This document shows, piece after piece, positions 34,597 to 63,918 of a stretch of 64,000 nt of DNA. The notes under the pieces are model-generated. The model was not told where the DNA came from. It saw nothing but the letters and a program-made list of their open reading frames with translations, and did no database searches. Location: contig JASFYR010000008.1 in the NCBI GenBank assembly GCA_045047115.1, forward strand, positions 77,278 through 141,277, in the 5' to 3' direction. The first letter of the stretch is position 1. Each line of letters opens with the position of its first letter. Source of the DNA: Sulfurospirillum sp. GTDB taxonomy: Bacteria; Campylobacterota; Campylobacteria; Campylobacterales; Sulfurospirillaceae. Made by a program: the position numbers and the translations under genes.

Positions 34597-35220
34597 ATGA
34601 TTAATGAAACTTTTTTACTCGATATCGCAGATTTTATCGGAATAGCATCCTTTGCACTTAGTGGTTTTTATATCGCAACCAAGGATAGACTGGATATATT
34701 GGGTGTATTTATAGCCTCTTTTTTGACGGCACTCGGAGGCGGTATCATAAGAGACATTATAGTAAACCGTGCACCTTTTACATTTTTGCACTCTTATCCC
34801 TCTTTGATTGTTGTTTGCGTGTTGGTTTTAAGTGTTTTGTTGGGACTGCATAAAAGCGATAGGATTTTAAAGAGCAAGCTTTTGATTCTTAGTGACTCTG
34901 TCGGTCTTATCTCTTTTTCTATCTCAGGTTCCCTAGTGGCTTTACAGGCTGGATTTAGTCTCTTTGGGGTCAGTTTGCTGGCGGTTATCACAGCAACGGG
35001 AGGAGGAGTTATGAGAGATATTCTTCTAAATAAAATACCACTTCTTTTGGTAAGTGAACTCTATGGCACCATATCCATAATGGTGGCTGTGATTATTTTT
35101 ATTTTAAGTATCTGTGGTGGTGTAAATTTTTTCACACTGGGCATAGTGTTTGTTGTGGCTCTTGCATTTAGGCTTTTGGCATATTATAAAAAATGGCATT
35201 TACCACATTTGAGCGATTAA
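34597..35220 (+). CDS. TRIC/UPF0126 (YicG-like) membrane protein
   Basis: Duplicated TALGGGIIRD / TATGGGVMRD motifs. Confidence 0.9.
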   Translation: MINETFLLDIADFIGIASFALSGFYIATKDRLDILGVFIASFLTALGGGIIRDIIVNRAPFTFLHSYPSLIVVCVLVLSVLLGLHKSDRILKSKLLILSDSVGLISFSISGSLVALQAGFSLFGVSLLAVITATGGGVMRDILLNKIPLLLVSELYGTISIMVAVIIFILSICGGVNFFTLGIVFVVALAFRLLAYYKKWHLPHLSD

Positions 35221-53863: not shown

Positions 53864-54777
53864 ATTACCAAGCTGTTTTAGAGGAGATAAGAGAAGAGGT
53901 GAGAGGGTTTTTTGGAAAAGGCAGAGTAGCAGACTATATCCCGGCTCTCAAAAGAGTGGATTCTGCCCATTTTGCTATGAGTTTACAGCTTTTTGACGGC
54001 TCTTTCTATGGGGTCGGTGAGGTTGATTGTAGATTTTCCATTCAGAGTATATCGAAAGTTTTTACTTATGCTATGGTTCTGCCTCTATATCAAAAAGATC
54101 TCTACAAGAGGATAAGCCACGAACCATCAGGAAACCCTTTTAATTCGCTGGTTCAGTTGGAGTATGAAAAAGGCATACCGAGAAATCCTTTTATAAATGC
54201 AGGAGCTATCGTAGTTACAGATATGTTAAAATCTACATACGGAGGCGAAACATTTTCAAAAATTCTTGATTTTATCAAAGAAGTAAGCGACAATGACAGC
54301 ATAGGCTACGATAAAGAAGTGGCGCTTTCTGAGCTAAATTTTGGTTTTAGAAACGCAGCATTGGTCAACATGATGAAAAGTTTCAAAAATATTTCAAATG
54401 ACACAAATTGTGTGATGGATACATATTTTAAACAGTGCTCCATCTCTATGAGTGCGAAAGAGCTCAGCAGGGCAGTTCTTTTTTTTGCAAACCATGGTGT
54501 TGATCCGATCACCAAGAAAAGGTTTTTAAGTGAGTCTCAGGCGAAAAGATTAAACTCTTTGATGCTGACATGTGGGCACTATGATGCCTCAGGAGATTTT
54601 GCTTTTAGAGTGGGCTTACCAGGTAAAAGTGGTGTAGGAGGCGGTATAGTAGCACTTGTTCCAAATCTTATGTCGATCTGTGTTTGGTCGCCGGAGCTAA
54701 ATGAAAAAGGTAATTCGCTTGTGGGCACCAAAGCACTGGAGCTGTTTACAACAAAAACAGGACTCTCTATATTTTAG
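53860..54777 (+). CDS. glsA: Glutaminase
   Basis: VADYIPAL, FSIQSISKVF, EPSGNPFN, NPFINAGA, GLPGKSGVGGG. Confidence 0.95.
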   Translation: MNYQAVLEEIREEVRGFFGKGRVADYIPALKRVDSAHFAMSLQLFDGSFYGVGEVDCRFSIQSISKVFTYAMVLPLYQKDLYKRISHEPSGNPFNSLVQLEYEKGIPRNPFINAGAIVVTDMLKSTYGGETFSKILDFIKEVSDNDSIGYDKEVALSELNFGFRNAALVNMMKSFKNISNDTNCVMDTYFKQCSISMSAKELSRAVLFFANHGVDPITKKRFLSESQAKRLNSLMLTCGHYDASGDFAFRVGLPGKSGVGGGIVALVPNLMSICVWSPELNEKGNSLVGTKALELFTTKTGLSIF

Positions 54778-54799
54778 TTAAAAGTAAAGCTCTGACCCT
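54773..54799 (-). repeat. GGGTCAG-motif repeat copy 1 (type A)
   Basis: TTTAGTTAAAAGTAAAGCTCTGACCCT, identical to 55945-55971. Confidence 0.9.
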
Positions 54800-54835
54800 A
54801 TCATTTTGAATGAATTTTATGCTATAATATTTTTT

Positions 54836-55207
54836 ATGAAAACAATCGAGATCAAAAATGCTTTACCATTATCAGTATTTTCCCATGAGATGCTTTATGC
54901 ATTGATAGAAAAAACTGTAAGTAATGTCAATGATAAAATCTCAAATCTTGTAAAAAGTGGTGAATTGATAAGACTCAAAAAAGGTTTTTACACTTTTTCA
55001 AAACCATACCTTACAAAACCTATAGATCTAATCAGCGTCGCAAATATACTCTATACCCCATCTTATGTATCATTTGACTATGCACTTAGTTTTTATGGGA
55101 TGATACCTGAGAGAGTAAGAGAGATTGCATCAGCCACAAGCAAAAACAAAAAGATTTTTGACACTCCAATTGGTTATCAATTTGTTCTATCTTTTAATGC
55201 ATTATAA
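54836..55207 (+). pseudogene. 3'-truncated AbiEi-type (type IV TA) antitoxin
   Basis: LIRLKKGFY, ANILYTPSYVSFDYALSFYGMIPERV, FDTPIG, then runs into the relE 3' end; no AbiEii partner. Confidence 0.75.
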
Positions 55208-55464
55208 ACTTTATTATTTTCTCGTTTACCTACACTTATCACATAAACAGTAATCTTAGTATCTTGCACTTCGTAAGTTAAACGATAACCGATATTTCTT
55301 AATTTAATTTTATATATATTTTCATGACCACTTAATTTATCTTTAGTAATTCGTGGATTTGTCAGTCTCTTTTTAAGTTTTTTATGAAACTGTAATTTTA
55401 TAGTAGAGCTTAATTTATCCCACTCTTTTAAGGCTTTAGGATGAAAATCAAGTAAGTAAGTCAT
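55177..55464 (-). CDS. relE: RelE/StbE-family toxin
   Basis: ALKEWDKL, KLSG, YKIKLR..GYRL.YEV, VISVGKRE. Confidence 0.9.
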   Translation of the reverse strand: MTYLLDFHPKALKEWDKLSSTIKLQFHKKLKKRLTNPRITKDKLSGHENIYKIKLRNIGYRLTYEVQDTKITVYVISVGKRENNKVYNALKDRTN

Positions 55465-55705
55465 CTATATCTACTCTTATAGATTCTAGCCCATCATTTA
55501 ATCTCTCATCAACAACTTTACTTAAATAATAGTCATCTACTATATCTATCATTTTTTCGTATAATGTACTAGGTACAAGATATGCTGAAGCTACATTGTG
55601 ATTTAAAATTGCAACTGCTTCATCACCTGCATTTTTTAGTAATTGTGTTGGCGATTTTTTAAGTTCCGTTATACTAGCTGTGTAGTTCGCTAAAATTGGT
55701 TGCAT
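55448..55705 (-). CDS. Phd/YefM (StbD-like) antitoxin
   Basis: ASITELKKSP, AVAILNHN...AYLVP; overlaps the toxin. Confidence 0.88.
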   Translation of the reverse strand: MQPILANYTASITELKKSPTQLLKNAGDEAVAILNHNVASAYLVPSTLYEKMIDIVDDYYLSKVVDERLNDGLESIRVDIDDLLT

Positions 55706-55784
55706 ATTTAGTCCTTTATTTAGTATCTTTTATAACTCATTATATCATATTTTCAATTAGATTTCATGCCTAATCGTTCAAATA

Positions 55785-55826
55785 AAAAATTTACTATTCA
55801 CCATCCACAATTATCCATTTTCAATT
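55785..55826 (-). repeat. Degenerate heptamer tandem array
   Basis: + strand AAAAATT TACTATT CACCATC CACAATT ATCCATT TTCAATT. Confidence 0.7.
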
Positions 55827-55922
55827 ATTTTCAGCAACTTCCCCTCAAACTCTTCTCGTCCACTTTCAAAATATGAAAATGATAATGGGAAAAAACAGTT
55901 CAAGAATGGTTATATACATTAT

Positions 55923-55992
55923 AAGTTTATTTCCAATACTTCTCTTTAGTTAAAAGTAAAGCTCTGACCCTGCTCTTTCTAATTCTGACCCC
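55923..55992 (-). repeat. GGGTCAG-motif copies 2 and 3, plus a partial type B leader
   Basis: AAGTTTATTTCCAATAC at 55923-55939; 27-bp copy at 55945-55971; CTGACCCC at 55985-55992 next to the yoeB stop. Confidence 0.85.
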
Positions 55993-55993
55993 A

Positions 55994-56254
55994 CTATCCT
56001 CCGTAATGATATTTACATGATACGATATTTATATCAAAATCATTAACTTCATAAACCAATCTATGCTCATCTGCAATTCTTCGTGACCAACAGCCTGCTA
56101 ATTCATATTTTAAAGGTTCAGGTTTACCAATCCCTTCATAAGGATCTCTTTTTATATCTTTCAATAAACTATTTATCTTTTTTAATACTTTTTTATCTTT
56201 ATTTTGCCAATCAACATATTCATCCCAAGACCTATCACTCCAAATCAATCTCAT
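55994..56254 (-). CDS. yoeB: Txe/YoeB-family toxin
   Basis: GIGKPEPLKY, WSRRI..EHRLVY, CKYHY. Confidence 0.93.
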   Translation of the reverse strand: MRLIWSDRSWDEYVDWQNKDKKVLKKINSLLKDIKRDPYEGIGKPEPLKYELAGCWSRRIADEHRLVYEVNDFDINIVSCKYHYGG

Positions 56255-56502
56255 TCTAAAATATCTTTTTCAAATCCTTTGCCATTTCTTAATTGATTTA
56301 AAGATGCTAATAAATTTTTTTTATTTGCGGGTGAACTAAGTAAATAGTTTGTCTCTTTCATAGAATTATATTCATCAAAAGGGATAACTACAACATTTTC
56401 TTTCCCTTTTCTATGGATAATCACTTCATCATTATCATGATACACAGCATCAAAGATATATTTAAAATTATTCCTAGCTTCTGTCATACTTACAACTTGC
56501 AT
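56251..56502 (-). CDS. yefM: YefM antitoxin
   Basis: SMTEARNN, EYNSMKET.YLLSSPAN. Confidence 0.9.
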   Translation of the reverse strand: MQVVSMTEARNNFKYIFDAVYHDNDEVIIHRKGKENVVVIPFDEYNSMKETNYLLSSPANKKNLLASLNQLRNGKGFEKDILE

Positions 56503-56523
56503 AATTATATCCTTACATTATAT

Positions 56524-56540
56524 TGTACAGTATTATATCA
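56524..56540 (-). promoter_or_regulatory. yefM-yoeB promoter with probable autorepression operator
   Basis: TGATATAAT extended -10 immediately followed by a TGTACA palindrome, the core of the E. coli YefM operator. Confidence 0.55.
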
Positions 56541-56589
56541 TAAATTTTATAAAAGCATTAACACTTTGCTAAATCTACTCGTTACCCAA

Positions 56590-56624
56590 AATAATTCTCC
56601 ATTATTCATTATTCATTTTTAATT
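56590..56624 (-). repeat. Degenerate heptamer tandem array
   Basis: + strand AATAATT CTCCATT ATTCATT ATTCATT TTTAATT. Confidence 0.7.
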
Positions 56625-56632
56625 AAATAATG

Positions 56633-56659
56633 GTTTATTTCCAATACCTGACCCCGCTA
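56633..56659 (-). repeat. GGGTCAG-motif copy 4 (type B)
   Basis: GTTTATTTCCAATACCTGACCCCGCTA; its CTA is the PIN toxin stop. Confidence 0.85.
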
Positions 56660-57073
56660 TTTTCCGCTTAAAAATTCTTCACAATTCATTATCTCAATAC
56701 CGCAGTTACAAAACTTTTTATCATTTGTTATTAGTATATTGCATCCATTTTCTTTTGCACATAAGCATTGAAGCAAATCTTCTAAGTCTAAATCTTCTTT
56801 TAGAGATAAGTTTGTAGCTTTTGAGAGTAGATCTATCCCAAACATAGATACATTCCAATCAACATATACCAATCCTCTTAAAAACTCTAGTACTACTTTT
56901 TTATCTCTTGAAATATAATACAAAGTTGTTATCATATCCTCACTGATGTATATATTATAATCTTCTAATGTTAAATTTTTCAACAGTTCTAATGATTGTA
57001 AATGTTGTATCCGAGCAGGGTCAATAATATCTACGACAATATTTGTATCCAAAAATATATTTCTATTGTCCAT
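56657..57073 (-). CDS. PIN-domain (VapC-like) toxin
   Basis: IFLDTNIVVD, DLEDLLQ, ITNDKKF acidic PIN residues. Confidence 0.88.
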   Translation of the reverse strand: MDNRNIFLDTNIVVDIIDPARIQHLQSLELLKNLTLEDYNIYISEDMITTLYYISRDKKVVLEFLRGLVYVDWNVSMFGIDLLSKATNLSLKEDLDLEDLLQCLCAKENGCNILITNDKKFCNCGIEIMNCEEFLSGK

Positions 57074-57356
57074 ATTTTTCCAATGCTACTTTTTCCTTGA
57101 TTTGACTTGATGTTAAGTTATCGAATCTTTTATATATTTTGACTTTCCCTGTATATTTTTCAATTCTATCGAGTTTTTTTTGCATCTCCTTAGATATTTT
57201 ATTATCCAAAAAAGCCTTAAATTCATCGGCATATCTAGGATGTATAAACAACCCTTTATATTCATGAGTTTTTTTATCCTTAACCTCAACATAATCATAA
57301 CCATCTAAGATATTTGAATTTCTAGCTAGTTCTCTCACGCCTACTATCCTTGTCAT
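57063..57356 (-). CDS. Putative antitoxin of the PIN toxin
   Basis: Small upstream gene overlapping the toxin; Phd-like VGVREL N-terminus. Confidence 0.7.
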   Translation of the reverse strand: MTRIVGVRELARNSNILDGYDYVEVKDKKTHEYKGLFIHPRYADEFKAFLDNKISKEMQKKLDRIEKYTGKVKIYKRFDNLTSSQIKEKVALEKYGQ

Positions 57357-57395
57357 TTTATATCCTTTGTTGTCTTTTGATATATTGTATCATAT

Positions 57396-57430
57396 TTTCA
57401 TTCAAAATTAAACATTCATCATTCACAATT
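57396..57430 (-). repeat. Degenerate heptamer tandem array
   Basis: + strand TTTCATT CAAAATT AAACATT CATCATT CACAATT. Confidence 0.75.
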
Positions 57431-57476
57431 ATTGATTAGCTCAACATTTTTAGCTTTTTGAACAACATCGTTAGGG

Positions 57477-57501
57477 TAAAAGTAAAGCTCTGACCCCGCT
57501 A
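57477..57501 (-). repeat. GGGTCAG-motif copy 5 (type A)
   Basis: TAAAAGTAAAGCTCTGACCCCGCTA. Confidence 0.88.
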
Positions 57502-57567
57502 ATTGCTATTTTTTAATGCTTTTGACACAGTAGTCCTTGAGAACTTCAAAAAATCAGCTATTTTAGT
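57499..57567 (-). pseudogene. C-terminal HTH fragment (possible Y1/RAYT-like transposase remnant)
   Basis: TKIADFLKFSRTTVSKALKNSN-TAG, ending on the repeat motif. Confidence 0.45.
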
Positions 57568-57823
57568 AATGAAATCTGCATTGTGCAATTATTATCAAAT
57601 CATCCAAGATTTTACACACGAGCCTATGCTCAGCTGTAATTCGTCGTGAGTAATAACTACTGAAATTTTCTTTTAATCTTTCTGGTCTTCCTAATCCATC
57701 TTTGTTATATGGATTTCTTTTAATATCCTTTATCAAAAGATTAACTCTTTTTAAAATCTTCTTATCATTCTCTTGCCAGTAATTATAATCTTCCCAACCT
57801 CAGTCTGCAAAGCCTAAAATCAT
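57563..57823 (-). pseudogene. yoeB: YoeB toxin with an in-frame TGA at codon 8
   Basis: MILGFAD*GWEDYNYWQENDKKILKRVNLLIKDIKRNPY...GLGRPERLK..YSRRITAEHRLV...QCRFHY; ATGA overlap with yefM. Confidence 0.88.
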
Positions 57824-58071
57824 ACATCAATTTCTTTTTGTAAAAATTTTGAATTTTCTATCTGTTCAACCGCTTCTGTCAATCTATCCCTGTTGTTTTT
57901 AGAAGAGAGCAAGTAGATTGTTTCTTTCATAGAGTTATATTCTTCTTGTGATATCAAAACAACCGACTGTTTTTCTTTTGTTGTAATAATAAACTCTTCA
58001 AAATTCTCACATACTTGGTTTATGATACTTCTTAGATTATTTCTAGCTTGAGAATATAATACTGCCTGCAT
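57820..58071 (-). CDS. yefM: YefM antitoxin
   Basis: YSQARNNL, SVVLISQEEYNSMKETIYLL; ATG 58071 after AAGGA RBS. Confidence 0.88.
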   Translation of the reverse strand: MQAVLYSQARNNLRSIINQVCENFEEFIITTKEKQSVVLISQEEYNSMKETIYLLSSKNNRDRLTEAVEQIENSKFLQKEIDV

Positions 58072-58175
58072 TGTAAATCCTTTTTTTGTCAATATATTGT
58101 CATTATAACACATTTTTCTATTGACTGAAGTCAAACTCCCCCGTAACGCCGGCTTCTGAGTATAAAATCATCTTC

Positions 58176-58376
58176 TTAATTCCCATACCCATCTGGATTT
58201 TTTAACTGCCAATTCCAGCTATCTTCACACATCTTATCTATACCAAACTTAGCTTCCCAGCCAAGTTCCTCTTTAGCTTTTGCAGCATTGGCATAACATG
58301 CGGCAATATCTCCAGCTCTTCGTTTTTGTATAGTATACGGTATACTTTTTTGACTGGCTTTTTCACAACCCTCTTT
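58176..58376 (-). pseudogene. galE: C-terminal fragment of UDP-glucose 4-epimerase
   Basis: EKASQKSIPY...RRAGDIAACYA..AKAKEELGWEAK..IDKMCEDSWNWQLKNPDGY. Confidence 0.85.
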
Positions 58377-58392
58377 AAGAAAACTAATTCTA

Positions 58393-58668
58393 TCAATAAA
58401 CTTCGTCATGCGTACCTATATCTATAGGTATTATCTCATTATTTTGTATTATAAAATCAATCACTACTCTATACTTCATTGTTATAGAAACACTATAATA
58501 TACATTTAACTTTCCTTGTAATTTATGAAGTCTCAAAGATGGATGATATGGATCATTTTCTAGTATTTCAACAGCTTTAATGTATCTATCCAATACTTCA
58601 GGATGTTTTTTGATAAACTTTTTTAGTTTTTTAAAGTATTCATCAGTTCTTACAATTTTATATTTCAC
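58393..58668 (-). CDS. RelE/ParE-superfamily toxin
   Basis: PYHPSLRLHKLQG, SVSITMKYR, DIGTHDEVY. Confidence 0.87.
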   Translation of the reverse strand: MKYKIVRTDEYFKKLKKFIKKHPEVLDRYIKAVEILENDPYHPSLRLHKLQGKLNVYYSVSITMKYRVVIDFIIQNNEIIPIDIGTHDEVY

Positions 58669-58912
58669 TAACCAATTCTTCTATATGTTCAGATGCAGTT
58701 TGTATTTTATAGTTACCTTGCTTTATGTCATTCATGGCTTTCATATGTGCGATATCAAGTTCACCTTCTCTAAATGCTTGATATCGCTCTATATCAAGCA
58801 CCACATACTTATTTTTACCTCTTACATTTATGATTAACTCATCAGCTTTATTTAATATGTTATCAAATACCGATACTCCATTTGTCTTGACTTCATTTGC
58901 AGTTATTGTCAT
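58658..58912 (-). CDS. Phd-like antitoxin
   Basis: ITANEVKTNGVS, INVRGKNKYVV; overlaps the toxin. Confidence 0.8.
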   Translation of the reverse strand: MTITANEVKTNGVSVFDNILNKADELIINVRGKNKYVVLDIERYQAFREGELDIAHMKAMNDIKQGNYKIQTASEHIEELVSEI

Positions 58913-58996
58913 AATCGTATCCTTAATAATACTTTTAATAGTATTATATCATCTTAATAGTTAAAGATTTACTTATCTAAAGCAATTTGTCGCTTT

Positions 58997-59125
58997 TTAA
59001 TCCCTTTTAAAATCATCCTCAATGCGAATAATATCATCTTCACCTATAAGCCCACTCTCATGTGAACCAACTGGATTAAAATATCTTAAAATATCTTCTA
59101 TCATAAGTTTTGTAGTCCCATAAGG
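58997..59125 (-). pseudogene. In-frame chimera of two galE fragments and a manC 3' end
   Basis: [14 protein letters not shown] / [16 protein letters not shown] / [12 protein letters not shown]. Confidence 0.8.
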
Positions 59126-59141
59126 ATGAATATTTTTTATA

Positions 59142-59165
59142 AAAAGTGAAGCTCTGACCCTGCTA
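59142..59165 (-). repeat. GGGTCAG-motif copy 6 (type A)
   Basis: AAAAGTGAAGCTCTGACCCTGCTA directly after the ATPase stop. Confidence 0.88.
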
Positions 59166-59166
59166 T

Positions 59167-60357
59167 TTAATAAAGGAACCCAAACAACCAAAGAGGAATC
59201 TTGCTGCCAAAACCTACTTCGATATCATCTGCTACAACAAAGCTATTTTCAATATCTTTTATCTGCTTAAAGCCCTTATTCTTACCTCCTATTTCGAATA
59301 AATAGGTATCATCTATAAGAAAATCCCCATCTTTTGGAATTTTAACATTATGCACAACACTTAAAAGTACAGCAAACACTGTCTCTCTAATAGTTCCAAT
59401 ATTTGCATCTTGACAATAGCTGAAATTTAAATTAGGATTATTTAAAAATATCTTATCAGGCTTAGAAAAAATATTATCACCCTTTGTTTTCGCCCTTATA
59501 ACATTAAAAATTTTACCCTTATGCAAATAATCTAGGTAAAGATATAAAGTATCTCTGTCTATACCAACTTTGGAACTTAACTCTTTTATATTTAGCTTAA
59601 ACGGGTTGGAATTACAAATAAGCGTAACCAACTTTTTTAAATTTATAATATACTCATATTTTATTTGAAAAATCGAAGGTATATCCACCTCTATAACCGT
59701 ATTCACAGTTTCATTTAACTTCAACTTATATCTATCTGGATTTTCAAAATAAAAGGGGTAATATCCAAAATCAAGGTATTCGCTCCAATACTCATAAGGC
59801 TTAATTTTTTGCGTTATCTCAAATGCAATGTCAGTATGTTTTTCTAAAATCTCTTTTAATGAGTAGCTTTTAAAAGATACACCTGTTTTAAATTCTAAAA
59901 ACTCCCTAAAGCTAAGCCCACTCACTCTATAAATTACTGCTCTTCTGCTAAGGTCTGCTTTAGAATGCTCTAACTCTATTGCTGACGAACCAGAAAAGAT
60001 AACCTTTAAATCCAGCATATCGTGTATCTGTTTTAGCTCTATTTCAAAATTTTTATACTTATGTATCTCATCAATAGCTAAAACTTCTCCACCAATTTTA
60101 TAAAACTCTTTTGCGATATCCAACAAAGAGATATTGGCAAGCTCCACACTATCAGCACTAATGTATAATTTTTTGTTAAGAGCAATATCTAAACTTTTAA
60201 GATAATTCAGGATATAAGTAGTCTTACCAACACCTCTTGCACCAATAATACCAATAAGTTTATCTTTATGCTCTATAGTTTCATAAAAATATCTTTTATG
60301 AATACTTTTTAACGAGTTCAAATAAAGCACAGAATTTTCTAATAATCTTTCAATCAT
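59167..60357 (-). CDS. AAA_14/DUF4143-type ATPase
   Basis: GARGVGKT Walker A, IDEIHKY Walker B, SGSS, DLSRR, GYYPF, C-terminal GDF...FEIGGKNK. Confidence 0.87.
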
Positions 60358-60462
60358 AGCATAACCTAAATTTTTGTATATTATAACACAATTAGGATTA
60401 CACTCCAACTTTTTTTAGATTTTTTTGGATTATAGTAGAAATAAAGAATAGTAAATATAAAT

Positions 60463-60535
60463 CTCTGACCCTGCTATCTTTTAGATTGTTTTAACTCTAT
60501 CATTAACAACAAGTTTATTCCCAATACCTGACCCC
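60463..60535 (-). repeat. GGGTCAG-motif copies 7 and 8
   Basis: CTCTGACCCTGCTA at 60463-60476; AAGTTTATTCCCAATACCTGACCCC at 60511-60535, just after the manC stop. Confidence 0.85.
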
Positions 60536-60544
60536 CTTTTCCTT

Positions 60545-61969
60545 TTAAATTCTCTTAAAATCATCTTCTATTCTTACAATATCATCTTCACCGGTATACT
60601 CGCCGACTTGAACTTCTATTAGAATTACTGGTATTTTACCTTCATTTTCTAAGCGATGGACTTCTCCCATTTTTATGTAGGTTGATTCATTAGGTCTTAT
60701 TAGTCTAGTTGTATCTCCTACTGTTACTGTTGCAGTGCCACTGACGACTATCCAGTGCTCATTTCTGTGAAAGTGTTTTTGCAAGCTGAGTCTTTTCCCC
60801 GGTTGTACAACTATTCGTTTTATCTTATATCCTGGTGTATCTTCAAGGATTGTATATGTTCCCCATGGTCTGTATCCTGTTAAGTGGATGTTGTGCAGGT
60901 CAGAGACTTTTTTTATCTCTTTTACGACCTCTTTTACTTTTTGAGAACTGCCTTTTTTACTCACAAGCAAAGCATCGCCAGTATCTACTATGATCAGATC
61001 ATCTACATCTATAGTTGCTATATACTTATCTATTCCATGTACTAGATTGTTTTTACTATCTATAGCTATGTGTTTAGCATTTAAAGTATTGTTATTTTCA
61101 TCTTTTGGCAACTCTTCATAAAGAGCATCAAAACTTCCAACATCAGACCAGTCAATGTTTGATGGTACAACTTTAACTATGTTTGATTGTTCCATAACAG
61201 CATAGTCGATAGACTCATCTGGAATCGCTTCCATATGAGAATGTTGAATTCTTAATGTTAAATTATCAATTTTTTTATTTTCAAATGCTTTCTTACTTGC
61301 ATCATAAATTTCAGGAGAGTACTTTTTAAGCTCATCTAAAAACACTTCTGCTTTAAAACAGAACATCCCGCTATTCCAATAGTATTTTAATGGTAAATTT
61401 TGAATGTTTAATTTTGAATTTTCTTCTAAATATTGTTCTGCTATTTCTAAGTCTGGTTTTTCTTTAAATAATTCAACATTCAAAATTGAACATTTATCAT
61501 TATATTCAGGCTTTGCCTGAATATACCCAAATCCAGTTTCGGCAAAGTTTGGTTTTATACCAAATGTTACAAGATTATCCAACTCTGCCAGATCTTTTGC
61601 TCTTTTTAAAACTTTTGCATACTCTGTCTCATTTTTGATTAGATGGTCAGATGGAGTAACCAGAACTATCTCTTCACTCTCGAGTGCCATACATGCAAGA
61701 GCGATTGCCGGGGCGGTATTTCTACCTACAGGCTCTAGCAAATATCTATTGTTTTTCTGTTTTAGTTCTTCAAGCTGATCAAGTGCCAAAAAGTATTGTT
61801 CACTATTTGAAACTATAAAGTTTTTATCACACACTTTAGAGTTTCGCTCTACTGTTAGTTGAAAAAGTGACTTGTCATCAAAGAGTTTTACAAACTGTTT
61901 AGGCATCAAAGTTCTACTTATCGGCCAGAGTCTTGTACCGTTTCCACCGCATAGTATTATATTGGTCAT
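60545..61969 (-). CDS. manC: Mannose-1-phosphate guanylyltransferase/mannose-6-phosphate isomerase
   Basis: ILCGGNGTRLWP, EPVGRNTAPA, WNSGMF, SIDYAVME, WSDVGS, RPWG, LSLQKH, GEDDIVR. Confidence 0.96.
   Translation of the reverse strand: MTNIILCGGNGTRLWPISRTLMPKQFVKLFDDKSLFQLTVERNSKVCDKNFIVSNSEQYFLALDQLEELKQKNNRYLLEPVGRNTAPAIALACMALESEEIVLVTPSDHLIKNETEYAKVLKRAKDLAELDNLVTFGIKPNFAETGFGYIQAKPEYNDKCSILNVELFKEKPDLEIAEQYLEENSKLNIQNLPLKYYWNSGMFCFKAEVFLDELKKYSPEIYDASKKAFENKKIDNLTLRIQHSHMEAIPDESIDYAVMEQSNIVKVVPSNIDWSDVGSFDALYEELPKDENNNTLNAKHIAIDSKNNLVHGIDKYIATIDVDDLIIVDTGDALLVSKKGSSQKVKEVVKEIKKVSDLHNIHLTGYRPWGTYTILEDTPGYKIKRIVVQPGKRLSLQKHFHRNEHWIVVSGTATVTVGDTTRLIRPNESTYIKMGEVHRLENEGKIPVILIEVQVGEYTGEDDIVRIEDDFKRI
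61240..61501. repeat. Three heptamer arrays embedded in manC
   Basis: 61240-61274 and 61389-61423 (AATNNNN on +), 61467-61501 (NNNNATT on +); 5 units each. Confidence 0.75.
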
Positions 61970-61982
61970 TTTTTCCCTCTGT

Positions 61983-62255
61983 TTAATTTTTAAATAACTC
62001 AGAATGACTTCCAACTCTAGTCAATGCAAGTTTCAAAATATTATTATTAATCTTATATATTAATAGTAAATCAGGTTTGATATGGCATTCTCTACAACCT
62101 AAAAAGTCACCACTTAATTTATGGTCTTTATATTTTTCATCAAGTTTAATCTTATTTGCAAGCTTCACAATTACTATTTTTAATAATTCTTTATTTTCTG
62201 ATGATAGCTTTTTGTAATCTTTCTTAAAACGGTTAGTTCTAAAAACAGAATACAC
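61983..62255 (-). CDS. yafQ: YafQ-family toxin
   Basis: FKKDYK, KDHKLSG, RECHIKPDLLLIY, RVGSHSELF. Confidence 0.92.
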   Translation of the reverse strand: MYSVFRTNRFKKDYKKLSSENKELLKIVIVKLANKIKLDEKYKDHKLSGDFLGCRECHIKPDLLLIYKINNNILKLALTRVGSHSELFKN

Positions 62256-62257
62256 TA

Positions 62258-62509
62258 TTATTTATCCAATTCTTCAAATAATTCATCTACATTTTGAAAG
62301 CTTTTACCTTTTTTTGATTCTAATTCTTCCAAAGCCTTTTGAGTATCTTTTGTAGGTATTTTTACTTCAAATGGCAATCCTTTATTTAATACAATCATAC
62401 TGTTAAATACACCTATAGCCTGAGAATATGTTAATCCAATCTTACTTAATATATCTTTTGCCTGAAAATAATTACTTTCTTCTATTCTTATTGTAGTCTG
62501 TGTTTTCAA
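62258..62509 (-). CDS. RelB/DinJ-family antitoxin
   Basis: TTIRI, GLTYSQAI, GLPFEVKIP, DELFEEL. Confidence 0.88.
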   Translation of the reverse strand: MKTQTTIRIEESNYFQAKDILSKIGLTYSQAIGVFNSMIVLNKGLPFEVKIPTKDTQKALEELESKKGKSFQNVDELFEELDK

Positions 62510-62577
62510 AATAATTTCTCCTAATAAATCTTTTATGCAATATTATATCCCAAATTGAATATAATATCAATAATTCT

Positions 62578-62612
62578 ACTCATTAAAAATTCAACATTCA
62601 CAATTTAACATT
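62578..62612 (-). repeat. Heptamer array overlapping the fcl stop codon
   Basis: + strand ACTCATT AAAAATT CAACATT CACAATT TAACATT. Confidence 0.75.
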
Positions 62613-63605
62613 AGAAAGATACCACTCATACATCATTTTTATCCCCTCTTCAAGTTCAACCTTATGTCTCCATCCAAGAGCATGTAGTTTACTTGGGTCT
62701 GTAAGTTTTACCATAGTGCCATCTGGTTTAGTGTCATTAAAGTAGAGTTCACCCTCATATCCAACTATCTTTTTGATAGTCTCTGCTAACTCTCGTATGC
62801 TTATGTCTACTCCAGTGCCTATATTTATATGGGTGTTTCTTATCTCTTTAGTTTTCACACTATTTGGAGTACAGCTATCATTACTTCCATCTGTACTTTC
62901 ATATGTATCTTTAAAATCACGATTCTCTAGTAAAAATACACAGGCATCAGCCATATCTTCTGAGTAGAGAAACTCACGTCTAGGTTTACCACTTCCCCAT
63001 ATCTCTACTTTAGGCTCATGATTTAATTTTGCTTCATGCATCTTTCTAAGAAGTGCTGGAAGTACGTGAGAAGTCTCTAGGTCAAAGTTATCATTTGGAC
63101 CATAAAGATTTGTAGGCATTACCGATATAAAGTTTGTGCCATATTGTAAATTGTAAGACTCGCACATCTTTATACCTGCAATTTTAGCTATAGCATAAGG
63201 TTCGTTTGTGTATTCTAGCTCACTTGTAAGCAGACTATCTTCACGCATTGGTTGTGGAGCATTTTTTGGATATATACATGTACTTCCTAAAAATAGTAAC
63301 TTTATAACTCCATTTAGATATGACTGATGGATTACATTGTTTTGGATTTGAAGGTTCTCATATATAAAGTCTGCTCTGTAAGTGTTGTTAGCTACTATGC
63401 CACCAACTTTTGCGGCTGCAAGTATGACATACTCTGGTTTTTCCTCTTTAAAGAAGTTTGCTACTGCTTCTTGATTCATAAGGTCTAACTCTTTATGAGT
63501 ACGATAAACTAAATTTGTATAACCTTTTGATTTAAGATTTTTCACTATTGCAGAACCTACTAAGCCTCTGTGCCCTGCTATGTATATTTTACTACTTTTG
63601 TTCAT
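62598..63605 (-). CDS. fcl: GDP-L-fucose synthase
   Basis: [61 protein letters not shown]. Confidence 0.96.
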
Positions 63606-63918
63606 CTATCTTCTCTTTATTGAATTTATTAGAATAATCAACTGAAGTGTGATATATTCTTATTATAAATATTTCATTTAATACTTTATTTACTTTGTAG
63701 ATAACAATATGACTTTCATATACCAGTACTCTACAATCTCTTTTAATGAGTTTATTTTTACATTCTGTACCCATAAATGGATTCAATTTAAGAAGTTCAA
63801 TTTTATCTTCATAGTTTGCTAAATAATTTAAAGCATTTGTTTGACTCTCTTTTGCTATATGCGATATAGCATCTTCCAAATCTATTTGTGCTTGTTTAGA
63901 GTATTTTATATTATACAT
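63592..63918 (-). CDS. RelE/ParE-family toxin
   Basis: [28 protein letters not shown]. Confidence 0.85.

Follow-up and report, generated by a model that had tools for sequence, protein, structure and literature searches.

Close to the right-hand edge of the stretch of Sulfurospirillum DNA analysed here (the window; 64,000 nucleotides, positions 77278-141277 of contig C8 in genome G000, an assembly of 2.14 Mb and 34.8% GC) lies a polysaccharide locus in which small accessory genes are punctuated by a short, co-oriented motif, CTGACCC, or GGGTCAG on the coding strand. This array carries four intact toxin-antitoxin (TA) pairs, a fifth whose toxin gene is broken, a fragment of an AbiEi gene and a gene for an AAA_14 ATPase; manC and an epimerase gene separate it from the right edge of the window, which is also the end of the contig (Table 1). 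An earlier note, made from the sequence alone, had taken this arrangement for an undescribed, integron-like gene-cassette system. We conclude instead that the motif derives from TIRYT elements (TnpA-Y1 subclass 2.1), of which it is the GGGGWSAS end, and that at least two families of them are represented here. Throughout, G000 denotes the genome studied and other G-numbers the comparison genomes, which are relatives and none of them of the same species; L-numbers denote fetched loci and C-numbers contigs of G000. The labels galE, fcl and livK are our presumptive names for genes that have Pfam matches.

Table 1. Features of the array and its immediate surroundings, in window coordinates.
Feature	Position	Strand	Matches and remarks
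M1, type-A TIRYT end, left border; inner side joined to glutaminase stop	54780..54798	-	
Truncated AbiEi-type antitoxin gene, own extended -10 box	54806..55207	+	NF047376 positions 19-123 of 172; PF13338 weak
Phd-type antitoxin and RelE/ParE toxin	55177..55705	-	PF02604, PF05016; L201 homologue without motif
Second-family short AT-rich repeat, ahead of antitoxin promoter	55786..55821	-	
Inner part of a type-B end without its GGGTCAG, fused behind M2	55923..55939	-	repeat family D10
M2, type-A TIRYT end	55952..55970	-	
M3, bare terminal heptamer, stutter-like, 21 bp outside M2; outer TAG is the yoeB stop	55985..55991	-	
YefM-YoeB pair	55994..56502	-	PF06769, PF02604
Second-family short repeat, ahead of yefM promoter	56589..56628	-	
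M4, type-B TIRYT-like end; outer TAG is the PIN stop	56633..56654	-	L181 PIN homologue also directly followed by type-B end
Unnamed antitoxin and PIN toxin	56657..57356	-	PF01850; homologues in L027, L043, L181
Second-family short repeat, ahead of antitoxin promoter	57400..57439	-	89% over 47 nt with contig C22 copy
M5, type-A TIRYT end	57478..57496	-	
3' remnant of TIRYT Y1 transposase, about 17 codons, HTH, in cis	57499..57561	-	match to L106/L187 Y1 gene
Second YefM-YoeB pair, yoeB with premature stop	57563..58074	-	intact L068 homologue without motif
3' remnant of sugar epimerase gene (galE-like)	58176..58364	-	62% with intact contig C28 gene; PF16363 tail
Phd-type antitoxin and HigB/YafQ-like toxin	58393..58912	-	L203 homologue without motif
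Chimeric debris: epimerase fragment with an internal deletion, joined to another manC 3' end	58997..59135	-	repeat family D3
M6, type-A TIRYT end, 6 nt behind ATPase stop	59142..59160	-	
AAA_14 ATPase gene	59167..60360	-	PF13173
M7, diverged type-A-like end	60447..60471	-	
M8, type-B end, 10 nt behind manC stop; right border	60513..60534	-	L062, L063, L064: no motif behind manC
manC, host polysaccharide gene; two in-frame second-family repeats (61385-61419, 61466-61505)	60545..61969	-	PF00483 and PF01050
RelB-YafQ pair and second-family repeat between epimerase gene and manC, no TIRYT end	61983..62614	-	internal control

The eight intergenic copies of CTGACCC listed in the earlier note are all present and all on the plus strand, within 5,763 bp (54792, 55964, 55985, 56648, 57490, 59154, 60465 and 60528). 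The only other copy in the window is a ninth at 34967 on the minus strand, within the first 54 kb, where the earlier note had not noticed the motif. Genome-wide the motif occurs 78 times in 2.14 Mb, from which 0.21 sites would be expected in 5,763 bp (Poisson P 8e-11), and a first-order Markov simulation for the length of the array gave a mean of 0.10 sites and a maximum of two in 2,000 runs. The array is the densest 6 kb of the genome for CTGACCC, with eight sites against four in the next clusters; these counts confirm clustering rather than an even spread. By type, the eight comprise four A sites (coding strand GGGTCAGAGCTTYACTTTT), a diverged A site, two B sites and a bare heptamer. Both extended forms of the motif that had been proposed are thus real, although the TAGCR included in the extended motif is found at only four of the eight sites. 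All eight read GGGTCAG, with the fourth G of the consensus GGGGWSAS in four and an A there in the other four.

The relationship between the motif and gene ends is as the earlier note had it. Three frames end in a TAG that lies two bases outside the motif: yoeB (stop at 55994-55996), the PIN gene (56657-56659) and a short HTH frame (57499-57501). The stops of the ATPase gene and manC lie within about 10 nt of the nearest motif, and the modules have their own extended -10 boxes, TGnTAYAAT standing ahead of seven of the eight checked. None of the motif sites folds as a hairpin better than shuffled sequence, an Rfam search returned zero matches, and a literature search for the literal sequence of the motif found nothing relevant. 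Intergenic GGG[TA]CAG is present at 55 sites in the genome, about 35 of which are the ends discussed here or their stutters, and records that carry the same extended motif are mostly from Campylobacterota.

Although the motif had been called undescribed, it matches the published consensus of the ends of TIRYT elements, or TIRtrons, which were named by Di Nocera et al. (2013, PMC3733652) and whose GGGGWSAS ends occur singly, as dimers and in groups. TIRYT enzymes correspond to TnpA-Y1 subclass 2.1, the second-largest group of Y1 transposases, present in 14.9% of strains and prevalent in epsilonproteobacteria (Quentin et al. 2018, PMC6006769), and to RAYT group 1, the most insertion-sequence-like of the true RAYTs (Bertels et al. 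2017, PMC5581495). Despite the size of subclass 2.1, the name TIRYT appears in only two works of the literature searched.

Three Y1_Tnp genes are encoded by G000. One is an IS200/IS605 TnpA; the other two, on contigs C7 and C3, are intact TIRYT elements lying between inverted ends that begin GGGGTCAG and GGGGACAG. The C7 and C3 proteins have the motifs NHYH, W[QE] and Y..NP (subclass 2.1: NH[YF]H, W[EQ], Y..NP), and HTH_23/HTH_28 match the C-terminal tails of the C7 and type-A proteins below cut-off. Exact matches to type A were fetched as 51 loci from genomes and 67 from metagenomes. Classified automatically, and so roughly, with a few assignments that may be wrong, the 119 distinct sites comprised 38 directly upstream of a Y1 gene (PF01797, NF047646), 24 arms of inverted doublets and 57 solo ends. 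The proteins linked to ends are Y1_Tnp proteins of 215-365 aa, and the cognate type-A enzyme is a Y1 protein of 345-365 aa with an HTH and an extra domain, next to an AbiEii gene. The guess of a HUH/Y1 RAYT-like enzyme behind the motif was right: type-A ends start Y1 genes in relatives, and TIRYT genes are found elsewhere in this genome. An arrangement of two inverted ends around a transposase was seen neither in the window, which holds solo ends and a remnant, nor in the type-A clade, where 14 of the 18 AbiEii ends have at least 300 bp of downstream DNA and 13 of these 14 lack an inverted end.

Type B was found in 10 of the 401 genomes searched. Its link to Y1 genes is weaker, since such a gene lies within 0.7 kb in only three of the 15 loci outside this genome and never has its start abutting the end. 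Locus L187 presents a type-B end, a 73-aa gene, a PIN gene and a Y1 gene in one run. The 3' part of this Y1 gene and of its counterpart in L106 matches window positions 57511-57561 (83% over 54 nt, E 1e-9; 14 of 17 residues identical), which indicates that a transposase once lay inside the array. The earlier 'HTH fragment' is accordingly a genuine short HTH frame ending at the TAG of the motif, with its identity corrected to the 3' end of a TIRYT transposase.

Several side observations concern the distribution and relatives of these ends. The fused-domain TIRYT clade (L013:2501-3602, L027:1869-3603, L155:1-1688 and other type-A loci) joins Y1-HTH to a domain of about 100 aa. An AbiEii nucleotidyltransferase gene follows and overlaps the transposase gene, no end but the left one is present, and polysaccharide loci are a frequent location. 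The extra domain could be the partner antitoxin; it matched no Pfam family, nor the partner of the C5 AbiEii. Where the domain is fused in the 347-aa protein, a remnant of a right end was clear in two of five copies only, and we do not claim it. The 19-nt type-A end also occurs in GC-rich DNA from outside the Campylobacterota (L009, L011, L014, L015, L019, L029, L040, L127, L137, L140 and L143), where it forms inverted doublets of 67 bp and also stands at the 3' end of a Y1 gene for a 321-aa protein; it is thus common to distant groups. The type-A pattern had no occurrence in viral contigs, the type-A transposase had no match among plasmids at 1e-30, and the C7 protein had only partial plasmid matches below 40%. 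A different GGGGACAG-containing end, present in four dispersed copies with a common outer sequence (G000:C10:59917, C21:3680, C23:108 and C32:10074), is probably the end of an insertion sequence of another family.

The behaviour of the ends across genomes is that of mobile elements. Nineteen pairs of ends are at least 90% identical over 100 inner bases, and in 16 of these the flanks are unrelated, which shows that the elements move; BLAST alignments between ends stop 5-10 nt outside GGGTCAG. The identical ends in differing flanks, together with the glutaminase junction described below, bear out the suggestion that the motif marks genuine breakpoints. The outer bases are often ATAGCA or TAGAG, with TAG at -5 to -3 in 21 of 115 sites, which gives the impression that stop codons are supplied by the motif. 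Of 49 intact left ends that have a gene no more than 600 bp away, 40 lie behind a same-strand gene, usually at most about 30 nt from its stop, the loci not being independent of one another. The co-orientation of the array can thus be traced to intact elements, which already land in the sense orientation just behind stop codons. In this draft assembly the GC skew tracks the strand of the genes; judged by eye, the orientation of the window relative to the skew is opposite to that of the C5 cluster.

Solo ends retain about 19-27 nt of the element, and their likeness to it fades gradually between nt 20 and 28; a sharp inner boundary at C^T was looked for and not seen. Of 196 ends, 15 bear tandem duplications across the terminus ('stutters'), and 13 of these duplications extend from 7-19 nt outside GGGTCAG to 5-8 nt within it. 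Their position would fit a nick near C^TGACCC followed by extension and rejoining, as proposed for E. coli TnpA-REP, which cleaves single strands at C^T and is associated with nick-primed amplification (PMC3333891; PMC8266576). Two housekeeping sites of G000 carry a solo end with stutters and no cargo where the sites of relatives are empty. As a separate observation, telomere-like runs of 8-30-nt units extend outward from TIRYT ends for up to about 130 bp between conserved host genes (G000:C21:32531-32666, C34:27040-27160, C3:14190-14310, C3:15020-15100 and C7:19690-19720).

The segments between the ends of the array are not clean cassettes: their borders are ragged, and they contain gene debris with short-homology fusions. 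The TA and ATPase modules of the earlier description are present, alongside remnants of genes and repeats of a second family. Behind M6, with no motif between them, follow epimerase/manC debris, a TA pair, an epimerase 3' end, the second YefM-YoeB pair and the Y1 remnant. In L027 and L122, where an ATPase stop likewise meets an end, an intact Y1 gene comes next. At the M1 junction 9 nt are common to element and host. Four relatives have, without any motif, a convergent MFS gene abutting the glutaminase stop, between glutaminase and a small membrane gene; here these two neighbours lie on different contigs (window 54769-54798; G000:C11:38565-39270), and the MFS gene has no match in this assembly. 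With the MFS gene gone and its neighbours split, M1 marks a rearrangement that joined the polysaccharide locus to glutaminase. Elsewhere in the same operon, two further TA loci are without an end (61983-62509 and 63592-63918), and in L063 the epimerase gene and manC are contiguous, with nothing between them.

The second short-repeat family, AT-rich and tandem, stands ahead of four antitoxin promoters and in frame in manC (55786-55821, 56589-56628, 57400-57439, 61385-61419, 61466-61505 and 62582-62614), with further copies on C22, C32, C9 and C6. A four-helix-bundle gene was considered as a candidate source of these repeats, to which such genes may be linked: one such gene (TIGR02436) lies behind manC in L062, the G000 assembly has none, and no paper was found that ties such genes to these repeats.

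On balance, we favour the view that TIRYT elements have repeatedly visited a common landing zone behind stop codons and that their footprints make up the array; deletions would have compacted it, and one-ended copying would have occurred now and then. Elements of this kind settle behind the stop of a same-strand gene, and most leave only 19-27 nt; in a one-directional polysaccharide operon, repeated visits would then yield co-oriented footprints at gene ends, and the outer bases brought along, often TAG, could turn into a stop codon. TA pairs, the ATPase gene and gene debris would gather in the same permissive spot, mostly by other routes, while deletions at microhomologies would compact the DNA between the ends. 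We infer a nick by the transposase in single-stranded DNA, at C^TGACCC or close to it; extension of the nick by a host polymerase and rejoining by the enzyme would produce the stutters at the terminus and, occasionally, one-ended copies that take in the end and its neighbouring genes and stop at variable points. Addictive TA pairs may persist in such a place because they resist deletion.

A number of observations weigh against this account. The same-strand rule holds only weakly for solo ends (52 of 86, P 0.07) and may not cover all of the co-orientation, and the trimming of elements to 19-27 nt is left unexplained. The cognate type-A enzyme is absent from this assembly, where the best match has 43% identity, and the literature search found no assay of any TIRYT or subclass 2.1 enzyme. 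The remaining points come from the site between the porin gene and livK. There, nine of the 12 genomes with sequence have both ends and inserted DNA, and the three without ends have no insert; one Phd-YafQ module has the same border bases with different end families in G005, G007, G008 and G009; and in G008 this module is triplicated from the end inward.

Such findings are what would be expected if TIRYT ends were instead active gene carriers, strand displacement starting from a nick and running to the next co-oriented end or stopping earlier, with the product joined at or beside an end already in place, so that arrays of TA and ATPase modules would grow end by end in the manner of ISCR elements or integrons. 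We regard this as possible but doubtful. The porin-livK site (G000:C5:26108-28672, that is L186; orthologues L190 and L206-L216) is a genus-wide hot spot with varied cargo and ends of five families, nearly all facing the same way, and is a better test bed for carriage than the window itself. Between two type-C ends at this orthologous position G000 and G006 enclose different TA pairs, PemK-type and RelE-type. Beyond it, the 49 pairs of ends more than 200 bp apart, a count that takes in the window's own pairs, related genomes and tandem copies, comprise 35 direct, 10 inward (eight of these being intact transposase genes) and four outward pairs, and many join different end families. Arrays like that of the window recur at L020, L112, L188, L025 and L038. 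Carriage would also suit the G008 triplication, the similar duplications from a fixed end in L032, L126, L141 and L144, the AbiEii gene borne by type-A elements that mostly lack an inverted right end, and the L187 run of type-B end, PIN pair and Y1 gene.

Other results weigh against the carrier model. The extra copies in G008 break off at differing points within the antitoxin gene. G004 and G009, the closest empty/filled pair, whose flanks are 93-95% identical, differ by an end plus module with a 24-bp duplication of host sequence. Their junction is 24 nt beyond the end, and in G013 a similar duplication borders an insert that has no motif. No two loci among the 119 sites pair the same outer flank with different inner cargo, and no module with the motif at both ends was found in two unrelated contexts. 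Homologues of the window's modules are mostly without ends: among those fetched by DNA homology, which are part of the matches only, five of seven ATPase homologues have no end nearby, and neither do the RelE, YefM, HigB and YafQ module homologues. At the priA-ispG site, examined as a control, TA-type pairs are present without any end in five of 11 genomes, and the two genomes with end doublets are free of cargo. This site also holds an imperfect inverted-repeat element of about 130 bp that is unrelated to TIRYT ends and lies in opposite orientations in G008 and G009 (L294:330-470, L295:1020-1160, L283). As to the enrichment at TA loci that the earlier note had asked about, of 19 TA modules of G000, drawn from four Pfam families plus neighbours, nine have an end within 300 bp, five of these in the window, and ten do not.

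Variable copy ends, the motif-free entry of TA pairs and the lack of a two-ended module seen in two unrelated contexts mean that the integron-like system of defined cassettes originally envisaged is not established, although one-ended copying of neighbouring genes is indicated. In its most far-reaching form the carriage argument would make TIRYT ends a promiscuous, integrase-free gene-stacking system of Campylobacterota: a one-ended Y1 element would nick at its end, copy that end along with the DNA behind it and join the copy to existing ends of any TIRYT family, so that fixed sites in the chromosome would accumulate and exchange TA, ATPase and polysaccharide genes. We rate this proposal as less likely than not; if true, these elements would be the Y1 equivalent of ISCR elements and would function analogously to integrons.

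At the opposite extreme, the ends may have been wholly passive, arriving attached to donor DNA from relatives and being fixed by homologous and illegitimate recombination while the transposase was idle at the locus. Homology-facilitated illegitimate recombination is a described route, the G009 insert looks homology-anchored in the livK promoter, the segments include pieces of other polysaccharide loci, and the missing cognate type-A enzyme would be expected. We nonetheless consider passivity improbable: terminal stutters, footprints without cargo beside conserved host genes of G000, a transposase remnant in the array and two intact TIRYT genes all indicate that the elements have been active in this lineage.

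Still less likely, to the point of being very hard to sustain, is that the array belongs to an integron or relies on the IntI of this genome. Such an enzyme is encoded (TIGR02249, 419 bits against a cut-off of 265; G000:C2:58977-59972, at the end of contig C2), and the attC arrays of G000 hold TA cassettes; the TIRYT gene on C3 adjoins two attC sites. However, a crude scan and an iterated nhmmer profile placed attC sites on C3, C24 and C27 only, with neither attC nor IntI in the window or on C8. The earlier statement that both were lacking is therefore correct for the window but not for the genome. With no attC on its contig, no adjacent IntI, a motif that is not a hairpin, and modules of mixed orientation that have their own promoters, the array was rejected as an integron.

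The locus and its relatives supply testable specifics: a defined end has a cognate enzyme and a junction 5-10 nt beyond it, C^TGACCC is a candidate nick site, the ends of genes are preferred for insertion, and one clade is one-ended and brings along a passenger gene. Should gene carriage prove real, the ends would form an overlooked route by which surface-polysaccharide and TA loci are reshuffled; if they carry nothing, their footprints are still liable to be mistaken for cassette systems.

Among known systems, the closest is the TIRYT element or TIRtron itself, with which the array and its relatives share a Y1 HUH transposase, a C-terminal HTH and non-hairpin GGGGWSAS ends that are single, dimeric or grouped, although, compared with an intact TIRtron, the window holds only ends and a remnant. 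The available text of the TIRYT and TIRtron papers does not describe co-oriented arrays, landing behind stop codons, stutters, passenger genes or a one-ended fused clade. REP/RAYT systems and BIMEs have a related enzyme and solo or doublet repeats spread in trans, and nick-primed amplification at C^T would yield stutters; unlike in RAYT groups 2 and 3, the ends described here have no GTAG tag and no hairpin, are of low copy number, and belong to elements that themselves move. Integron arrays resemble the window in their tandem small accessory genes, rich in TA pairs, with a repeated site between them. Unlike them, the window lacks attC, attI and a neighbouring IntI, its modules have ragged borders, and debris is present; the true integron of this genome lies elsewhere. 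IS91 and ISCR elements use HUH chemistry for one-ended rolling-circle transposition, with a Y2 enzyme and oriIS and terIS sites. HUH chemistry is common to both, and a fixed end, a variable far end and the copying of neighbours may be further likenesses, as the local duplications of L032, L126, L141, L144 and G008 suggest, whereas the enzyme here is a short Y1 protein and copying is seen as local duplications only. We found no published co-oriented TIRYT arrays or cargo in the literature searched; nearest are the subclass 2.1 genes reported among prochlorosin clusters in a preprint (bioRxiv 10.1101/2020.03.09.984088), in which a note added by the authors softens the causal claim. There, as at the locus described here, subclass 2.1 TnpA-REP genes and their C-terminal fragments are interspersed among clusters of small, variable genes.

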